From a virus, in IMG/VR virus record IMGVR_UViG_3300038393_000879: a stretch of 56,543 nucleotides of DNA; one strand, 5' to 3'. The notes under the pieces are model-generated. The model did no database searches and was not told the DNA's origin. It saw only the letters and a program-made list of their open reading frames with translations. The position numbers were made by a program, and so were the translations under genes. This document shows positions 43,968 to 48,965 of the stretch, piece by piece (the stretch's first letter is position 1; each line of letters starts with the position of its first letter).

Positions 43968-44059
43968 TTTATGTTTGGCTTTTGGTTGGCTAAAAGTCGG
44001 CGGAGTTGGTTCGAATTTTTCCCGGGTGCGTGCTTCGCGTGTGACGCGATCGCGTGACG

Positions 44060-44093
44060 AAAAAAAAAGACCGGCGCCGCGTTGGCTGCCGGT
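44060..44093 (-). terminator. Rho-independent terminator ending the ribozyme operon
   Basis: ACCGGC-N12-GCCGGU followed by U9 on the - strand. Confidence 0.75.
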
Positions 44094-44268
44094 TATGCTT
44101 CGATTAGTTCGCGCGGTTGCGCTGCTTCCGTTTCTTCTTCGTCTGCTATCCATCGGGTGACGATTTCGACGCCTTCGCCGTTCCGTTTAATTTCGATAAA
44201 CTCGAAACGCTTCCCCCAGTTGTTCGAAAAATAAATTTTTCCTGTTTCGTATCCTAGATAATTTTTCA
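44093..44268 (-). pseudogene. Small gene with an apparent frameshift (or recoding, or a homopolymer sequencing error)
   Basis: ATG at 44268 after ggagggg gives 40 aa and stops at 44146; the -1 frame continues …WGKRFEFIEIKRNGEGVEIVTRW… to a TAA at 44093, right at the terminator. Confidence 0.4.
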
Positions 44269-44289
44269 TGCTATCCCCTCCCCTTGTTT

Positions 44290-44493
44290 TTAAAAAAGTA
44301 TATCTAATAAAAAGTTTTTTGTTTCTTCTAGTGCTGTGATTTTTCCGAGTTGGTACGCCTTCGAGTGTTTTTCGTTGTCGTTTAGTTGGCGGCTGTTTTC
44401 GATTTCGTTTATTTTCTTAACGATTGTTTTTAGTTCCTCAAGTTCCTTTTCAATTTGGAAAATTTTATTTTTTATAGTTTGGAAATTTTTCAT
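44290..44493 (-). CDS. Hypothetical coiled-coil protein (67 aa)
   Basis: ataggagggataaaATG at 44493. Confidence 0.55.
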   Translation of the reverse strand: MKNFQTIKNKIFQIEKELEELKTIVKKINEIENSRQLNDNEKHSKAYQLGKITALEETKNFLLDILF

Positions 44494-44544
44494 TTTATCC
44501 CTCCTATGGGTCGCCGGCTGTAACCGGTGGGAAAATTGAAACAT

Positions 44545-44620
44545 CCCCAGACCGTCGAGAGGTTTTTTCGTTCCTCTCTAGGTTTCGGCTCGCGGTTTCT
44601 GCGCTTGCCTCTTCAGTGGG
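44545..44620 (-). ncRNA. Type I hammerhead ribozyme, copy 1
   Basis: CCCA-CUGAAGA-GGC..GCC-GAAA-CCUAGAGAGG..CCUCUCGACGG-UC|UGGGG; predicted cleavage between 44550 and 44549. Confidence 0.85.
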
Positions 44621-44623
44621 TTT

Positions 44624-45154
44624 TTATTTCTGCCGGTCCGTCCAGTCCTTGCCGGGTCCGGTTGTACCGATTATTATATACGGCTTGCCGCTCGGTTGGT
44701 TGTTTCCGCTATCGAGAAACGAAGAACCGCCGCCAAACTCTTTTACGCTGTCTTCTATTTCTGCGCTGTTTGTGCTGTCTTCTGCGTCTCCGGTCGATTT
44801 CTTCGCCGTCGTGCTCGTTCCGTTTGCTTCCGCTAGTTTGTCCGCTATAAATTGCTTTACGGCTGCATTTAGTGCCGGATTTAGCGGTATTTTTTTATCT
44901 GGTTTTACCGGGTGCAGCCTTTCGCGTTCCTCTTCTTTTTCCGTTAATTCTACCGCTAGTTTTTCCCGTTCTGCCTCGTGCTGTTCCATTTCTTTATATA
45001 GCCAATTATGGAAAGTTCGAGACGGTGCGGCGGTTTGTGTTGCCGTTTGTTTGGCGGTGGGTTCCGGTGGTTTCGTGTGCAGCGTGTCAACTATCATGAA
45101 ACACGCGAGAAATAAAACCGCGAAACCTGCGCCGCTCTTGCGTTTGGTTTCCAT
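44624..45154 (-). CDS. Putative lipoprotein / secreted protein
   Basis: N-terminus AVLFLAC (lipobox-like); RBS aggaggtga. Confidence 0.55.
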   Translation of the reverse strand: METKRKSGAGFAVLFLACFMIVDTLHTKPPEPTAKQTATQTAAPSRTFHNWLYKEMEQHEAEREKLAVELTEKEEERERLHPVKPDKKIPLNPALNAAVKQFIADKLAEANGTSTTAKKSTGDAEDSTNSAEIEDSVKEFGGGSSFLDSGNNQPSGKPYIIIGTTGPGKDWTDRQK

Positions 45155-45200
45155 TTCGTCACCTCCTATGTGCCGGCGGTGGTTATGCCGGTGGGATTTT

Positions 45201-45281
45201 CCCAGACCGTCGGAAAGTCGCGCGGGGCGTTTCTTCCCTAGGTTTCGCCGGTGGTTCCGTTCCTTCCGGCTCTTCAGTGGG
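45201..45281 (-). ncRNA. Type I hammerhead ribozyme, copy 2
   Basis: CCCA-CUGAAGA-GCCGG..CCGGC-GAAA-CCUAGGGAAG..CUUUCCGACGG-UC|UGGG; predicted cleavage between 45205 and 45204. Confidence 0.85.
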
Positions 45282-45288
45282 TGGGGTG

Positions 45289-46071
45289 TTACTCGTATTT
45301 CTGTAACGCTGTTTGTAATGCTTTTAATAGTTTAGCGTCTGCCTTTACTTCTTCGATTGTTAAGTCTAGGGCGTCGAGTGTGTCGTCTATGTCGTTTGTG
45401 TAGCCGTATTCGTGGTTTTCTAATTCGTAAGAAAACATATGTAATAAATATTTTTCATCTTTTCGCGCTTCTGCTTCTTCTGCTTCGAATTTGTCTAACA
45501 TTTCTTTAAATTTTGCGCTGTCGTCTCTACGGTAGTAACCGCCGCCGCCTATGCTATAAATTTTGTTTGTTTCGTCGGGGTTTAATCCTAGTTTTTCCAT
45601 ACCTGCTTTAAATTGTTCATCGCTAAAGGCGAAGAATAAAGGAAAATTATTAAATTCGTCTTGCTGCTTTTGTTTTAATTCGTAGTATGTGTTTGGCTCG
45701 TCTTCGTGTTCCATGATTTCCTCGAGTTCCGCGTCGTATATGTCTATTTTTCCCTCGAGTGCTTCCATGCGTTTCAGAATTTCGTCAATGCTGCTTTTTA
45801 ATTCTTCTTCTACTTCGTGCTCTGTGTAGCTGTCTAAGTTGCCGTATCCGTTAAACTTTACGAAGTCATCGCTATAGTTGTAGTTCCCAAAATGTGCCGC
45901 CCTTACTGCTTCCGCTGGGTTGCTGAAATATAATTCGAAGAAATACTCATCATTTTCATAATATTCTAGGCTATCTAGTGAACCGTCATAACCGTTGATT
46001 TGTGAAACGATTTCTTTTAGTGTTTCAGTATTTTCTAATAGGTATTTTTTAATTTCGTTAAAGTTTTTCAT
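45289..46071 (-). CDS. Acidic hypothetical protein (260 aa)
   Basis: ataggagggaaccaaaaATG; D/E-rich. Confidence 0.6.
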   Translation of the reverse strand: MKNFNEIKKYLLENTETLKEIVSQINGYDGSLDSLEYYENDEYFFELYFSNPAEAVRAAHFGNYNYSDDFVKFNGYGNLDSYTEHEVEEELKSSIDEILKRMEALEGKIDIYDAELEEIMEHEDEPNTYYELKQKQQDEFNNFPLFFAFSDEQFKAGMEKLGLNPDETNKIYSIGGGGYYRRDDSAKFKEMLDKFEAEEAEARKDEKYLLHMFSYELENHEYGYTNDIDDTLDALDLTIEEVKADAKLLKALQTALQKYE

Positions 46072-46171
46072 TTTTGGTTCCCTCCTATGGGTGCCCCGCC
46101 GTTTTGTCGGCGTCGGGTTTCGGTTTTATCGTAAGACCGAAAAGAGCCGGTTTTTTCTTGCTTCTATAATC

Positions 46172-46199
46172 AATATAATCAATAATTTTGAATTGTCAA
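46172..46199 (-). promoter_or_regulatory. Internal sigma-A-type promoter downstream of hammerhead copy 3
   Basis: aaaaagtgTTTGACAa-16 nt-TATATT. Confidence 0.5.
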
Positions 46200-46234
46200 A
46201 CACTTTTTTAATTATTTTGTGTTTGTGGGTAACG

Positions 46235-46298
46235 CCCAGACCGTCGAACCGTTTCCGGCTCTAGGTTTCGCCTCGATTTTCACGGGCTCATCAGTGGG
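46235..46298 (-). ncRNA. Type I hammerhead ribozyme, copy 3
   Basis: CCCA-CUGAUGA-GCC..GGC-GAAA-CCUAGAGCCG-GAAA-CGGUUCGACGG-UC|UGGG; predicted cleavage between 46239 and 46238. Confidence 0.85.
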
Positions 46299-46301
46299 TT
46301 T

Positions 46302-46481
46302 TCATATAACATACCAAACTATAAATAAATTTTCTTTTCCGTCTGTGCTGCTCCACGGCGTATAAAGTGCCGCGTGGTTTTTTCTAACGTATCGGCTCGC
46401 CGCCTTGTTTGTGTTTTCGCAAAATGTTTTTGCCTGCTCTTCTGTATTGAAAAATTTAAATGTTTTTCTATATTTATTCAT
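46302..46481 (-). CDS. Small protein (59 aa); not in the supplied ORF track
   Basis: Its ATG overlaps the upstream stop; MNKYRKTFKFFNTEEQAKTF…. Confidence 0.5.
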   Translation of the reverse strand: MNKYRKTFKFFNTEEQAKTFCENTNKAASRYVRKNHAALYTPWSSTDGKENLFIVWYVI

Positions 46482-46713
46482 TTTCTAACACCTCCATTTT
46501 TAAAATAATGTTTAAAATTTCGTTTAATTCTGCTTTATTGTATTTGTTCATTATCGGTTTTTCACAATTAAAATAAATTTGTTTTATTTCTAAAGTTATT
46601 GGATCGATTAAAACGCTGTAGATTTCGCCTTTTTCTATTTCTACGATTGCCAAACCGTCGACTGTTCCGTAATGGCTGATATTATCGAAATTTTTATAAA
46701 ATGCTTTTTTCAT
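46474..46713 (-). CDS. Hypothetical protein
   Basis: 79-aa ORF; RBS aggtgaaaac. Confidence 0.55.
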   Translation of the reverse strand: MKKAFYKNFDNISHYGTVDGLAIVEIEKGEIYSVLIDPITLEIKQIYFNCEKPIMNKYNKAELNEILNIILKMEVLENE

Positions 46714-46774
46714 GTTTTCACCTGTTAACCTCTCCGAGAGTTTGAAAAACTCGGGGGCGGGATTTATTGCGCTT

Positions 46775-46847
46775 CCCGGACCGTCGAGGGGCTCGCCTTT
46801 TGGCGTCTTCCTCTAGGTTTCGACGCTTGCGGCGTCTCATCAGCGGG
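46775..46847 (-). ncRNA. Type I hammerhead ribozyme, copy 4
   Basis: CCCG-CUGAUGA-GACGC-CGCAA-GCGUC-GAAA-CCUAGAGG..CCUCGACGG-UC|CGGG; predicted cleavage between 46779 and 46778. Confidence 0.88.
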
Positions 46848-46850
46848 TTT

Positions 46851-47141
46851 TTAAAAATCGTTTAAAAATTGTTGTTTTCTTTCTGCTAAAACCTGGATAT
46901 AGTTTTCAGCGTATTTTTTTTGTGTTAGTAAATAGCTATCCTCTAGGTCGTGCAGTTGGTGACTATAGCAGAACCAAACGAGTTCGACGAGTGCCACGAG
47001 TTCCTTTTTGTTCGCAATCTGTAAGCCAAACTTTAAGGCGTCAACTCTGCGGAAAAGTTCGTCTTTCGTTGTAAATTCTAACTTGTGCCCCACTAGTTCC
47101 ATACCGATATAATTTAATGTTTGAAGTTCGTTCTTTTTCAT
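46851..47141 (-). CDS. Hypothetical protein
   Basis: 96-aa ORF; RBS gaggtgaaaa. Confidence 0.55.
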   Translation of the reverse strand: MKKNELQTLNYIGMELVGHKLEFTTKDELFRRVDALKFGLQIANKKELVALVELVWFCYSHQLHDLEDSYLLTQKKYAENYIQVLAERKQQFLNDF

Positions 47142-47206
47142 TTTTTTTCACCTCGTGAACCGTGCCAGCCTTTAAAAAACTAGCCGGAGGGGTCTCAAAA
47201 TCTGCG

Positions 47207-47281
47207 CCCCAGACCGTCGAGGCGTTGCCGTTACGCTTGCCTCTAGGTTTCGAAACGCCGCCGCGTTTCTCGTCAGTGGGA
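47207..47281 (-). ncRNA. Type I hammerhead ribozyme, copy 5
   Basis: UCCCA-CUGACGA-GAAACGC-GGCG-GCGUUUC-GAAA-CCUAGAGGC..GCCUCGACGG-UC|UGGGG; predicted cleavage between 47212 and 47211. Confidence 0.88.
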
Positions 47282-47608
47282 TTTTTTAACTCTGTAGACT
47301 GCTACTTTATACTCGGTCATGGGTTCCAGTTCGTAACCGTTCAAGCCGCCGCTTTTTTCAATTTTATTTATCAGCGCGTCGCTGCTGTGGTCTCCGTCGC
47401 GGTCCTCGAAAATTAAAACCTCGTTTTCGCTTGCGTTCATACCGTAAAATCTATTGACGCGCTGCACTGCTTCGCCTTCGTGAAACTCGAGAACCGTCTT
47501 TAACTCGCTCGGCTCTATGTCCAGTGACGCCCATAACTTGCGGTCCGCTGCGCTCATTTTTGGATTTACTAACTTTTCAATTTTATTTTTTAGCTGTTCG
47601 ATTTTCAT
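47273..47608 (-). CDS. Hypothetical protein, first gene of the ribozyme operon
   Basis: 111-aa ORF; RBS agggaggtcg; its UGA stop lies inside the ribozyme CUGA core. Confidence 0.6.
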   Translation of the reverse strand: MKIEQLKNKIEKLVNPKMSAADRKLWASLDIEPSELKTVLEFHEGEAVQRVNRFYGMNASENEVLIFEDRDGDHSSDALINKIEKSGGLNGYELEPMTEYKVAVYRVKKSH

Positions 47609-47633
47609 ATTATCGACCTCCCTTGTCCCTTAC

Positions 47634-47662
47634 TTTATAAATCCATTGTTTTTATTTGTCAA
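47634..47662 (-). promoter_or_regulatory. Sigma-A-type early promoter of the ribozyme operon
   Basis: aaaaagtaTTTGACAa-17 nt-TATAAA. Confidence 0.6.
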
Positions 47663-47879
47663 ATACTTTTTTTATTATTTTGTGTTCGGAACGGCGGAAC
47701 CGTTGGAAACACTGGAAAAAATATTTTTCGTTTGTTTTTATATTCTAGTTATCGGAAACAATCGGCGGGAACTTTAGAAAATAATCGGTTATTTTTTGGG
47801 GGACGGTAACAAAAAGAAAAGAAGCAAAAGAAAAAGAAATAACTATATTATATTATACGAGAAAAACAACACCTTAAAT

Positions 47880-48300
47880 TTTTATGGGTGGCGGGGGGTC
47901 TTCGAAAATGTGGCGGTTTATCGTTTTTATTTTCTGGGAAATGGTGGAGAACAGCGGGGAAATTATCGCCGGCATTGTCTCGAATAAATCGGCGGTAACG
48001 TCTAAAGACGTATGGGGAAACGGTGGGGAAATCGTGGGAAATTGTCGGCAATACTGACACGGAAAACCTAACGGAAAAACCTGCGTTTTGGGGTACGTTT
48101 GGGGACATGTAAACAGCCGGCAAATCCGCGCTGTGTCTGGCGTCGGGGGATCGGTTGGGGTTCGCGCTGTGGGTTCGTTGTGGTATCGTTTGGAGCTGCG
48201 TGAAATGGCGTCTGCATGCGCTTGCCGTAACTCGGACGGGGGAGAAGCTGCGGGAAACATTGGGGGTTACGCTGCAGCCCATGGGGGAGTAAGCGCGAAG
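47880..48300. repeat. Non-coding G-run / GGGAAA iteron-like repeat field
   Basis: GGGGAAACGGT-GGGGAAATCGT-GGGAAATTGTC in tandem at 48014-48046, plus many dispersed GGGAAA/CGGAAA and GGGG tracts, all on the + strand. Confidence 0.7.
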
Positions 48301-48740
48301 GCACTTCGAACAACAAAAAAATTATTTATTTCTTGCTGCAAATACGCCGGAACGGGCGGGACGGACACCATTCGTTAGAATTGTGTTTGTGTTTGTTCGC
48401 TGAAACAATCGCCAGACCTTGCGCCGCTTGCGGTTTCTGCTAATTAAAGGGCGAGGGGTACGCCCCCGGTATGCAAGAGCCGCCCCGCCGCCGAACGCGC
48501 AACGCTAAGTGTTTGACGCACGTTCTCATCGAAATTTCAATGTTGGAGTAACGCCGTTCGATCGTCGATTGTGCGTTGTTCCTGAAGCATAGCTTCGCAT
48601 GCAGGCGTTGTTCATGCGTCAATTTATCGTCTGTTCATACGAGGTTGCCACCCCATCGTGAAAATGTCGTTCCAAAAATTGATGAAATCGCATAAAATTT
48701 CGCGAAAAATTTTTCACAAATACGGGGGTCTGCGTGGCAT

Positions 48741-48965
48741 GGTCGGTAATTAACTTCTGACCTCGATTTATACGTAGATCGGTAATTCATTTCTTATCCG
48801 AGTATCTTACTACGAATTAGCGTAAGCCCGGTAAATCAACATTTTCAGCGACAGGTCGGAAATTGGTTACAGGTCGGTAAAATATTGCAGGTTACAATAA
48901 TATAATATATATTATTAATTTCTAAAAGATATATAAATAATGGTGACCGGAAATAAACTTCTGAC
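48741..48965. repeat. Six YCGG(T/A)AAW boxes, two AACTTCTGAC boxes and an AT-rich tract (candidate origin)
   Basis: ggtcggtaatt, atcggtaattc, cccggtaaatc, ggtcggaaatt, ggtcggtaaaa, gaccggaaata; AT-only run at 48895-48945. Confidence 0.7.

Follow-up and report, generated by a model that had tools for sequence, protein, structure and literature searches.

Introduction

Owing to their architecture, type III hammerhead ribozymes give a product that begins with a closed stem I hairpin, and type I is, to our knowledge, the only hammerhead topology that leaves this end bare. Small ribozymes can also be gated by competing helices, as in viroid hammerheads with their alternative folds and in the alternative pairings on the flanks of the HDV ribozyme. 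Type I hammerheads are found between the genes of phages and prophages, in several copies that flank single genes or short gene blocks (Rfam clan CL00010; PMC3088659), and their core, their stem topology and this arrangement are those of the locus analysed here. Regarding the function of bacterial and phage hammerheads, reviews only suggest the processing of polycistronic RNA into pieces that differ in stability (PMC6765202, PMC3088659). The stem I/II pseudoknot, which is formed between loop II and the 3' tail and brings stems I and II into alignment, is needed for fast cleavage (Perreault et al., 2011; PMC3088659). On the side of the products, RNase J1 degrades the 5'-OH RNA made by the glmS ribozyme, secondary structure at the 5' end stabilises mRNAs, and base pairing at the very 5' end is a known block to 5'-end-dependent decay (PMC3997798). 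RiboJ combines the sTRSV hammerhead with a 23-nt hairpin, and a gain in mRNA stability has been proposed for this terminal hairpin (PMC6206723).

Here we describe five type I hammerheads in a stretch of 56,543 nucleotides of viral DNA, referred to as the window. They differ from the known type I ribozymes in a 4-bp stem I, in the motif CCUAGRG...CYCGACGG, in Rfam scores below the gathering threshold and in a hairpin that trails every copy.

The phage and its small-gene run

The window belongs to an uncultured tailed phage of about 42% G+C, with genes for a ribonucleotide reductase, a DnaB-like helicase, a family A DNA polymerase, a tape measure protein and a large terminase. Even the closest of its relatives in culture are distant (35% identity to a Bacillus phage for the terminase and 36% to a Paenibacillus phage for the polymerase), and homologues of a 260-aa early protein occur mainly in Bacillus and Staphylococcus phages; judged from its sequences, the phage probably infects a Bacillales-type Firmicute. 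A run of small genes extends on the minus strand from 47.3 to 44.5 kb, with the five hammerheads between the genes, and is probably read from a promoter-like site near 47662.

Hammerhead ribozymes of the run

Between 44.5 and 47.3 kb, on the minus strand, we identified five type I hammerheads, all with the core CUGANGA / GAAA / GUC, cleavage being predicted after GUC:

44617–44620, minus strand, copy 1 stem I 5' strand CCCA; the stop codon UAA of the upstream ORF lies 3 nt before it
44550–44616, minus strand, copy 1 hammerhead body (CUGAAGA, stem II, GAAA, stem III, GUC); predicted cut 3' of C44550
45278–45281, minus strand, copy 2 stem I 5' strand CCCA
45205–45277, minus strand, copy 2 hammerhead body; predicted cut 3' of C45205
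46295–46298, minus strand, copy 3 stem I 5' strand CCCA
46239–46294, minus strand, copy 3 hammerhead body; predicted cut 3' of C46239
46844–46847, minus strand, copy 4 stem I 5' strand CCCG
46779–46843, minus strand, copy 4 hammerhead body; predicted cut 3' of C46779
47277–47281, minus strand, copy 5 stem I 5' strand UCCCA, within the end of ORF 47273–47608
47212–47276, minus strand, copy 5 hammerhead body; predicted cut 3' of C47212

The UH cleavage site (GUC) with its A15.1-U16.1 pair is present in all five copies, each of which has stems II and III closed and stem I open, and the core columns are invariant in an alignment of eight sequences. Stem I consists of 4–5 bp, CCCA/UGGG in four copies and CCCG/CGGG in copy 4 only, and shows a compensatory change in the same alignment (AU in five sequences, GC in three). 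Stem II has five different sequences, each of them pairing over 3–7 bp, and stem III, whose distal pairs covary, is made of sequences that are unrelated among the copies, apart from the conserved internal motif CCUAGRG...CYCGACGG. When RNAalifold was applied to eight versions, stems I and III were recovered with compensatory changes.

A pairing-aware scan of the window revealed no further hammerhead beyond these five; one extra match was a false positive, being in reality a promoter-like TTGACA. At the gathering score, an Rfam scan of the window gave no hammerhead match and no riboswitch or aptamer, and the best scores below threshold were 23.3 bits for Hammerhead_3 (threshold 48.5) and 19.8 bits for RAGATH-1 (threshold 56.3). 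This poor fit to the models is explained by how long stems II and III are and by a stem I of 4 bp. By sequence and predicted fold the five hammerheads are new members of the known class, and we infer that they cleave themselves.

Upstream stop codons lie 3–7 nt 5' of stem I, and in copy 5 the stop codon is inside the catalytic core, the UGA that ends ORF 47273–47608 being the UGA of the CUGACGA of that copy. A short gap between stop codon and stem I is also common in phage hammerheads without the downstream complement described below.

A second partner for the stem I strand

In all five copies the stem I 3' strand (YGGG) is followed, 3–14 nt further on, by a Watson-Crick complement, here called the decoy, which can fold back on it. 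These hairpins had been reported in a preliminary description of the sequence, the coordinates of which proved exact for every copy:

44528–44549, minus strand, copy 1 decoy hairpin UGGGGA-N10-UUCCCA; 6 bp, -5.7 kcal/mol, starting right at the new 5' end
45192–45204, minus strand, copy 2 decoy hairpin UGGGA-AAA-UCCCA; 5 bp, -4.7 kcal/mol
46226–46238, minus strand, copy 3 decoy hairpin UGGG-CGUUA-CCCA; 4 bp, -3.6 kcal/mol
46758–46778, minus strand, copy 4 decoy hairpin CGGGA-N11-UCCCG; 5 bp, -5.1 kcal/mol
47189–47211, minus strand, copy 5 decoy hairpin, GGGG (47210–47207) with CCCC (47192–47189); -6.5 kcal/mol, first U unpaired

The predicted hairpin starts at position +1 of the 3' product in four of the five copies and at +2 in copy 5. 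All are short (4–6 bp, -3.6 to -6.5 kcal/mol) and weaker than classical stabilisers. In copies 1, 2 and 4 the hairpin has 6, 5 and 5 bp, respectively, compared with 4 bp in stem I; it outlasts stem I in these copies because the position that follows is occupied, in the upstream strand, by an A that cannot pair, and this greater length argues that the segment was selected as a hairpin and does not merely copy a strand of stem I.

As had been proposed, stem I and the decoy hairpin cannot coexist, since both need the same bases, and YGGG has to pair with one CCCR, upstream or downstream. For the uncut RNA, nearest-neighbour calculations, which ignore the tertiary structure of the core, give in each of the five copies an energy that is lower by 2.0–4.6 kcal/mol for the decoy fold than for the stem I fold. 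Of the 519 YGGG sites of the window, 43 (8.3%) have an exact reverse complement 3–16 nt further on, against five out of five at the hammerheads (p about 4e-6), and with a conservative shuffle, in which the local C content was preserved, the combined p was 0.015; a caveat is that the five units are paralogues.

The preliminary description had also claimed a three-way covariation between the two stem I strands and the decoy. The correspondence itself is there, as copy 4, the sole copy with CCCG/CGGG, has a CCCG decoy, but this CCCG represents one evolutionary event, shared with two related contigs (L078 and L123). The stem I 3' strand has to be used again by any hairpin that begins flush at the 5' end of a type I product, and the partner strand will therefore resemble the stem I 5' strand; because a paired 5' end requires this reuse, both the apparent three-way covariation and some competition before cleavage are to be expected.

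Leaders of the downstream genes

The predicted 3' products consist of the flush hairpin, 0–3 nt, a second hairpin and then the Shine-Dalgarno sequence (SD) and the AUG, the elements being the following:

44514–44527, minus strand, copy 1 second hairpin CCGGU-UACA-GCCGG, abutting the decoy; SD AGGAGG 44505–44500, AUG 44493
45173–45191, minus strand, copy 2 second hairpin CCGGC-N9-GCCGG, abutting the decoy; SD AGGAGG 45167–45162, AUG 45154
46172–46199, minus strand, copy 3 promoter-like TTGACA-16-TATATT, 11 of 12 matches, lying 3' of the decoy and 5' of the next gene
46086–46081, minus strand, SD of the gene downstream of copy 3; AUG 46071
46734–46754, minus strand, copy 4 second hairpin CCGAG-N11-CUCGG; SD AGGUG 46723–46719, AUG 46713
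47165–47187, minus strand, copy 5 second hairpin CCGGCU-N10-AGGCUGG; SD GAGGUG 47154–47149, AUG 47141

The second GC hairpin announced earlier for four of the five units was recovered 3' of the decoy in copies 1, 2, 4 and 5, and the sequence AUAGGAGG in copies 1–3. Copy 3 had been singled out for a promoter 3' of its decoy, and TTGACA-16-TATATT is in fact the best promoter match in the region. A promoter also follows a copy 4-like unit in one of the related contigs (L123), so that in these two places the downstream gene has another 5' end too.

Conservation in close relatives

Searches for close relatives by peptide patterns in IMG/VR and for cultured-phage relatives by blastn of two ribozyme units found none, and the close relatives considered here are three contigs that were reached through protein look-ups (L078 and L123/L124). 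Every decoy and ribozyme-leader module is kept in these contigs, while the genes between the ribozymes differ; loops, stem II and distal stem III change and the hairpins persist. In the copy 4-type units the decoy strands CGGGA/UCCCG are unchanged in L078 and L123, around a loop of 10–11 nt that occurs in three versions (AGCGCAAUAAA, AGCGUAACAAG and AGCGAAACAG), and the L123 unit has a wholly replaced stem II and CCAAG as its stem III motif. The copy 1-type decoy shows in the relatives an A to G change that keeps a U·G pair, together with a loop longer by one base, and in the second hairpin of this unit the pairing is held by different pairs. The informative changes are few, and their pattern is the one expected under selection for pairing.

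Comparison with a wider set of hammerheads

Two comparison sets were gathered blind to the downstream sequence, one of 31 non-redundant type I hammerheads with the CCUAG stem III motif and another of 37 non-redundant, unrelated phage type I hammerheads with a CCCA/UGGG stem I. In the CCUAG set, nucleotide +1 is paired in 18 of the 31 products, compared with 11.6 expected at matched 4-mer sites (p=0.007), and this excess is gone when the assumed 5' end is shifted by 4–12 nt. Only seven of the 37 CCCA/UGGG hammerheads have the exact hairpin (vs 8.3%, p=0.03), and pairing of nucleotide +1 (15/37) is not above the 30% seen at other UGGG sites (p=0.10). A hairpin statistic that allowed G·U pairs was dropped, its null reaching up to 0.9. 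As these sequence comparisons indicate, the hairpin is a trait of some lineages, including this phage, and not of type I hammerheads generally; the presence of a decoy showed no association with the G+C content of the contig.

Flush hairpins are also formed with other stem I sequences (GCGGUG/CGCCGC in L007, GUGG/CCAC in L009, UGGC/GCCA in L046-2 and GCGG/CCGC in the Cohnella prophage L068/L074), as well as with UGGG/CCCA in L102 and L119, and one is present in L053. The distance from the new 5' end to the SD has a median of +29 with a decoy and +18 without (p=6e-4), a difference that is partly trivial because the hairpin occupies space. The larger distance would fit a need to protect ends that lie beyond the reach of a bound 30S subunit.

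A loop II-tail pseudoknot of at least 4 bp, located 2–3 nt after stem I, can be drawn in 20 of the 37 CCCA-type hammerheads. The pairing is clear in L045 (UUUGGC with GCCAAA), L032/L036 (CGGCU with AGCCG), L090, L095, L104 and L109, and in L036-2 it covaries (GGUC with GACC). L032/L036, L045, L046-2, L068 and L086-88, for example, have a tail whose sequence complements loop II as well as the stem I 3' strand; in the same-contig pairs L036-1/L036-2 and L046-1/L046-2 the pseudoknot covaries and the complement that forms the hairpin is retained, and loop II of L086-88 includes UGGGA(U), which repeats the stem I strand. The comparative support is confounded by several relatives in which the decoy-like segment and the pseudoknot partner of loop II overlap.

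The loops II of the window contain neither UGG nor GGG in any copy, so that the CCCR of the decoy has no partner there. Matches between loop II and the tail amount to 5 bp in copy 1, 4 bp with a G·U pair in copy 3 and 3 bp in copies 2, 4 and 5, none of them above shuffles (p 0.28–0.88). The decoy loop of copy 1, which holds GUUUC, could meet loop II (GAAAC) at the right distance, and the copy 4-type units all conserve CGCAA in loop II and AAGCG in the tail despite the replacement of stem II, both without statistical support. Pairings of the tail with stem III or with the 5' flank gave in the window only A/U-rich matches or matches of 3–5 bp, not above shuffles.

A possible role of the hairpin after cleavage

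From the anatomy of the units, its conservation and the predicted folds we infer cleavage, formation of the hairpin after it and stabilisation of the product. We tentatively favour, at somewhat below an even chance, the reading that cleavage is followed by folding of the hairpin, which would sit flush at the 5'-OH terminus of the downstream mRNA and protect it. Each unit would then be a self-processing boundary between early genes, composed of a stop codon, the hammerhead, the cut, the flush hairpin, the second hairpin, the SD and the start codon. In the intact transcript YGGG would pair with the upstream CCCR and complete stem I, and the ribozyme would cut after GUC. The entire ribozyme body (stems II and III) would depart with the upstream mRNA and form the structure at its 3' end, and the released YGGG, with which the downstream mRNA now begins at its 5'-OH end, would pair with the downstream CCCR. 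A paired 5' end, stacked on the second hairpin, would hinder 5'-end-dependent decay by an RNase J1-type 5' exonuclease of the Firmicute host, and the downstream message would gain a fixed 5' UTR regardless of the upstream sequence.

The proposal is coherent because the host is probably of the Bacillales type and RNase J1 degrades 5'-OH RNAs made by a ribozyme. The greater predicted stability of the decoy fold in the uncut RNA counts against it since, if the energies are taken literally, the ribozymes would be slow. The shortness of the hairpins, their restriction to some lineages, the overlap with the loop II partner in several relatives and the promoters behind copy 3 and the L123 unit weigh against it as well. 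The further suggestion that the hairpin blocks re-ligation appears weak from first principles, as a stem I of 4 bp would let the product go unaided.

In relatives, the complementarity of one tail to both loop II and the stem I strand suggests an extended form of this scheme, which we consider an unlikely one in its entirety. The tail would have two states, being docked on loop II before the cut (in the window perhaps by a weak contact) and then capping the 5'-OH end, which would make the cut irreversible and determine how stable the next message is and how it is translated; the units would be portable, host-independent cassette boundaries, exchanged among phages with different genes. Docking would favour the active fold and keep the decoy occupied until the ribozyme body leaves. 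The early transcripts of T7 are processed at RNase III sites, and such two-state boundaries would play a like role.

Alternative explanations

The hairpin might instead act before the cut, as a gate or attenuator that traps YGGG in the uncut RNA and sets the rate or the condition of cleavage, an explanation that we take seriously and nonetheless regard as improbable. In its favour, the predicted stability is greater for the decoy fold than for the fold with stem I enforced in all five copies (by the 2.0–4.6 kcal/mol given above), the hairpin exceeds a stem I of merely 4 bp in three of them, and the window offers no convincing loop II pseudoknot that would favour the active fold. The stop codons 3–7 nt before stem I, together with the copy 5 stop codon that is the UGA of the catalytic core, provide a possible trigger, as a ribosome terminating on the upstream ORF might cover the stem I 5' strand and leave YGGG to the hairpin. 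However, phage hammerheads that lack decoys commonly have a stop codon close to stem I as well, and a trigger or ligand-binding element, looked for by Rfam scans of the window, was not found. In addition, the energy model leaves out the tertiary structure of the core, a mostly-off ribozyme would have been kept five times between genes without obvious benefit, and the equivalent tail of the relatives is held by loop II in the active fold, which avoids the competition and does not exploit it. It is very doubtful, on the other hand, that the decoy itself belongs to the active fold, as the loop II partner in the stem I/II pseudoknot, with its likeness to stem I being incidental. The 20 of 37 CCCA-type hammerheads with such a pseudoknot, the pairings in L045 and L032/L036 and the covariation in L036-2 point to this role elsewhere, and the GAAAC/GUUUC match of copy 1 and the conservation of CGCAA and AAGCG in the copy 4-type units would agree with it, but the CCCR of the window is left without a partner by loops II that have no UGG or GGG, and the window pairings do not exceed those of shuffles; docking on loop II would be open, if at all, to the initial part of the tail, and not to CCCR.

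An origin without present function has also to be weighed. The decoy could be the leftover of the closed stem I of an old type II hammerhead after circular permutation by tandem duplication and loss, and type II hammerheads with the same stem III motif do have a hairpin at that position, the stem I hairpin of one of them (L002, GCGGGAUAAGCCCGC) differing little from the hairpin that the decoy forms in a type I hammerhead (L044, GCGGGAUAGCCGC). We consider this quite unlikely, as no trace of a second CUGANGA block is seen 3' of any decoy, the hairpin extends past stem I and is retained in three diverged relatives, and the 4–6 bp complement is always kept among paralogues whose loops (3–14 nt) and stems II and III are unrelated. 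Mere chance, by which a G-rich strand would find complements in C-rich flanks and pass them on by duplication, agrees with the paralogy of the copies, with a p of just 0.015 in the shuffle that preserves local composition and with the roughly 30% of other UGGG sites at which nucleotide +1 is paired. It is hardly credible in view of the exact 4-bp complement in five of five copies, compared with 8.3% of YGGG sites (p about 4e-6), of the loops, which are not homologous, so that the complement must have been kept or re-created, and of its conservation in relatives amid loop changes. The decoy could finally concern translation, if before the cut the free C-rich strand masked the SD and after it YGGG recaptured the decoy and turned translation on. 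The predicted unpaired fraction of the SD rises from the stem I state to the product in copy 2 (0.33 to 0.67) and copy 5 (0.34 to 0.76), and the decoy region of copy 5 reads CCCCUCC; such a relay is nevertheless very improbable, since copies 1 and 4 are unchanged and the copies are thus inconsistent, copy 3 has 150 nt and a promoter between decoy and SD, and the decoys of relatives (CCGC, GCC) are not complementary to an SD.

Comparison with known systems

Some type II hammerheads (RF02276) are relatives that share with the window copies the stem III motif CCUAGRG...CGACGG, the position before SD and AUG and a hairpin at the cleavage site; one of them (L004) scores 43.7 bits on RF02276 (threshold 37). 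They have a closed stem I hairpin of 5–6 bp at the cut site, followed by SD and AUG. In type II this hairpin is stem I itself and CUGANGA follows it, whereas in the window CUGANGA lies upstream and the hairpin competes with stem I. Since the type II relatives also carry a hairpin there, both topologies yield a hairpin-led product, and the bare end of the type I product may be repaired here by the decoy hairpin. The loop II/3'-tail pseudoknot (Perreault et al., 2011) occupies the same place as the decoy; the decoy of the window is complementary to the stem I strand and not to loop II.

Compared with known 5'-terminal stem-loop stabilisers, the stem-loops predicted for the window likewise begin at +1 or +2, but they are weaker. 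As in the gating of the HDV ribozyme and of viroid hammerheads, a flanking segment excludes the active fold, but there the pairings are of longer range and belong to replicating RNAs, while here a local hairpin is found at five mRNA boundaries.

In the literature searched (hammerheads, phages, alternative folds, RNase J1) we found no description of a hairpin that reuses the stem I strand, nor, for hammerheads, of a coupling between catalysis and product refolding through a tail with dual complementarity. The dual complementarity of the tail in relatives would point to such a coupling, and a conserved hairpin at the cut end gives the processing idea a concrete, testable form, namely which product is meant to survive and how. 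RiboJ resembles the units of the window in that the upstream RNA is removed and a fixed leader containing a hairpin is left before the ribosome-binding site. RiboJ is an engineered part, in whose product the bulk of the ribozyme is retained; in the window a natural type I ribozyme would leave with the upstream RNA, and the hairpin would be built from the stem I strand. The units may thus be a natural counterpart of this engineered insulator, and could be used as a compact part for Gram-positive hosts.

Alternative pairings of the tail

In several of the comparison contigs, the tail, that is, the nucleotides following the stem I 3' strand, is complementary both to loop II, as in the pseudoknot known as an activating contact in many type I hammerheads, and to the stem I 3' strand, as in the flush hairpin (L032, L036, L045, L019, L046, L068/L074, L086-L088 and L102, with two ribozymes each in L036 and L046). 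Where one contig has a pair of ribozymes, the two covary at the pseudoknot, and in L086-L088 loop II contains UGGGA(U), the sequence that opens the 3' product. Stem I tends to be shorter with a flush hairpin (mostly 3-5 bp) than without one (mostly 6 bp) in loci L007-L074, whose sequences are not independent.

In units of the type of copy 4, the fourth of the five window hammerheads, all three examples (the window and its close relatives L078 and L123) keep CGCAA in loop II and AAGCG as the opening bases of the tail. In L123 stem II is wholly replaced, yet both segments are retained, a hint that they may make some tertiary contact in addition to the three possible base pairs.

Copy 4-type units and segments
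46829-46833, minus strand, window, loop II segment
46771-46775, minus strand, window, tail segment
L078 1238-1320, copy 4-type unit
L123 2176-2265, copy 4-type unit

Among the window copies, only in copy 2 does the second hairpin, the GC hairpin after the decoy, share its strands with stem II: CCGGC...GCCGG (45173-45191, minus strand) consists of the same two strands as GCCGG...CCGGC (45247-45270, minus strand), so that the ribozyme body could enter into a second alternative pairing.

Stop codons and genomic setting

The stem I 5' strand of the window hammerheads begins 3-7 nt after the stop codon of the upstream ORF and, in copy 5, the UGA within the catalytic CUGACGA is itself the stop codon of ORF 47273-47608 (minus strand). 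With stop codons this near to, or inside, the ribozyme, a terminating ribosome would sit over stem I and extend into the core. Many unrelated phage hammerheads of the CCCA/UGGG stem I comparison set likewise have a stop codon directly next to stem I.

Stop-codon/stem I junctions, all on the minus strand
47273-47281, copy 5
44621-44626
45282-45291
46299-46304
46848-46853

At 47634-47662 (minus strand) we identified TTGACA-17-TATAAA, followed by GGGAGG and by an AUG at 47608, which is a likely early promoter of the ribozyme-punctuated operon; the promoter scan missed this site because its -10 hexamer ends in A. In the stretch at about 47650-48900, which separates the early leftward operon from the rightward genes, the ORFs on the two strands all overlap and are of low plausibility; this may be a regulatory or a non-coding region.

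When the regions L078 1-6855 and L123 1-4189 were set against window 44000-47700, the ribozyme-plus-leader modules were nearly unchanged and the intervening genes differed. L078 has an additional 56-aa gene ahead of the copy 1-type unit, the genes after the copy 4-type unit differ among the related phages, and in L123 a promoter module is joined to a copy 4-like unit. The ribozyme-plus-leader modules may serve as joints at which gene cassettes recombine.

Relation to other ribozymes

Phage contigs carrying related hammerheads also contain other self-cleaving ribozymes.

Other self-cleaving ribozymes
L004 529-598, HDV-F-prausnitzii-like match, 40.6 bits, slightly below the 44-bit threshold
L032 5191-5260, twister-sister, 44.7 bits
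L012 1485-1542, type III hammerhead, 52.7 bits

All five window copies conserve the stem III internal motif ACC-UAGRG...CYC-GAC-GGU (e.g., 46269-46239), of which L123 2176-2243 carries the variant CCAAG. This motif might mediate a tertiary contact or serve as a binding site for a protein, possibly making up for the short stem I. Hammerheads of both type I and type II share it, on unrelated contigs from phages and metagenomes (L001-L017 and L018-L063).
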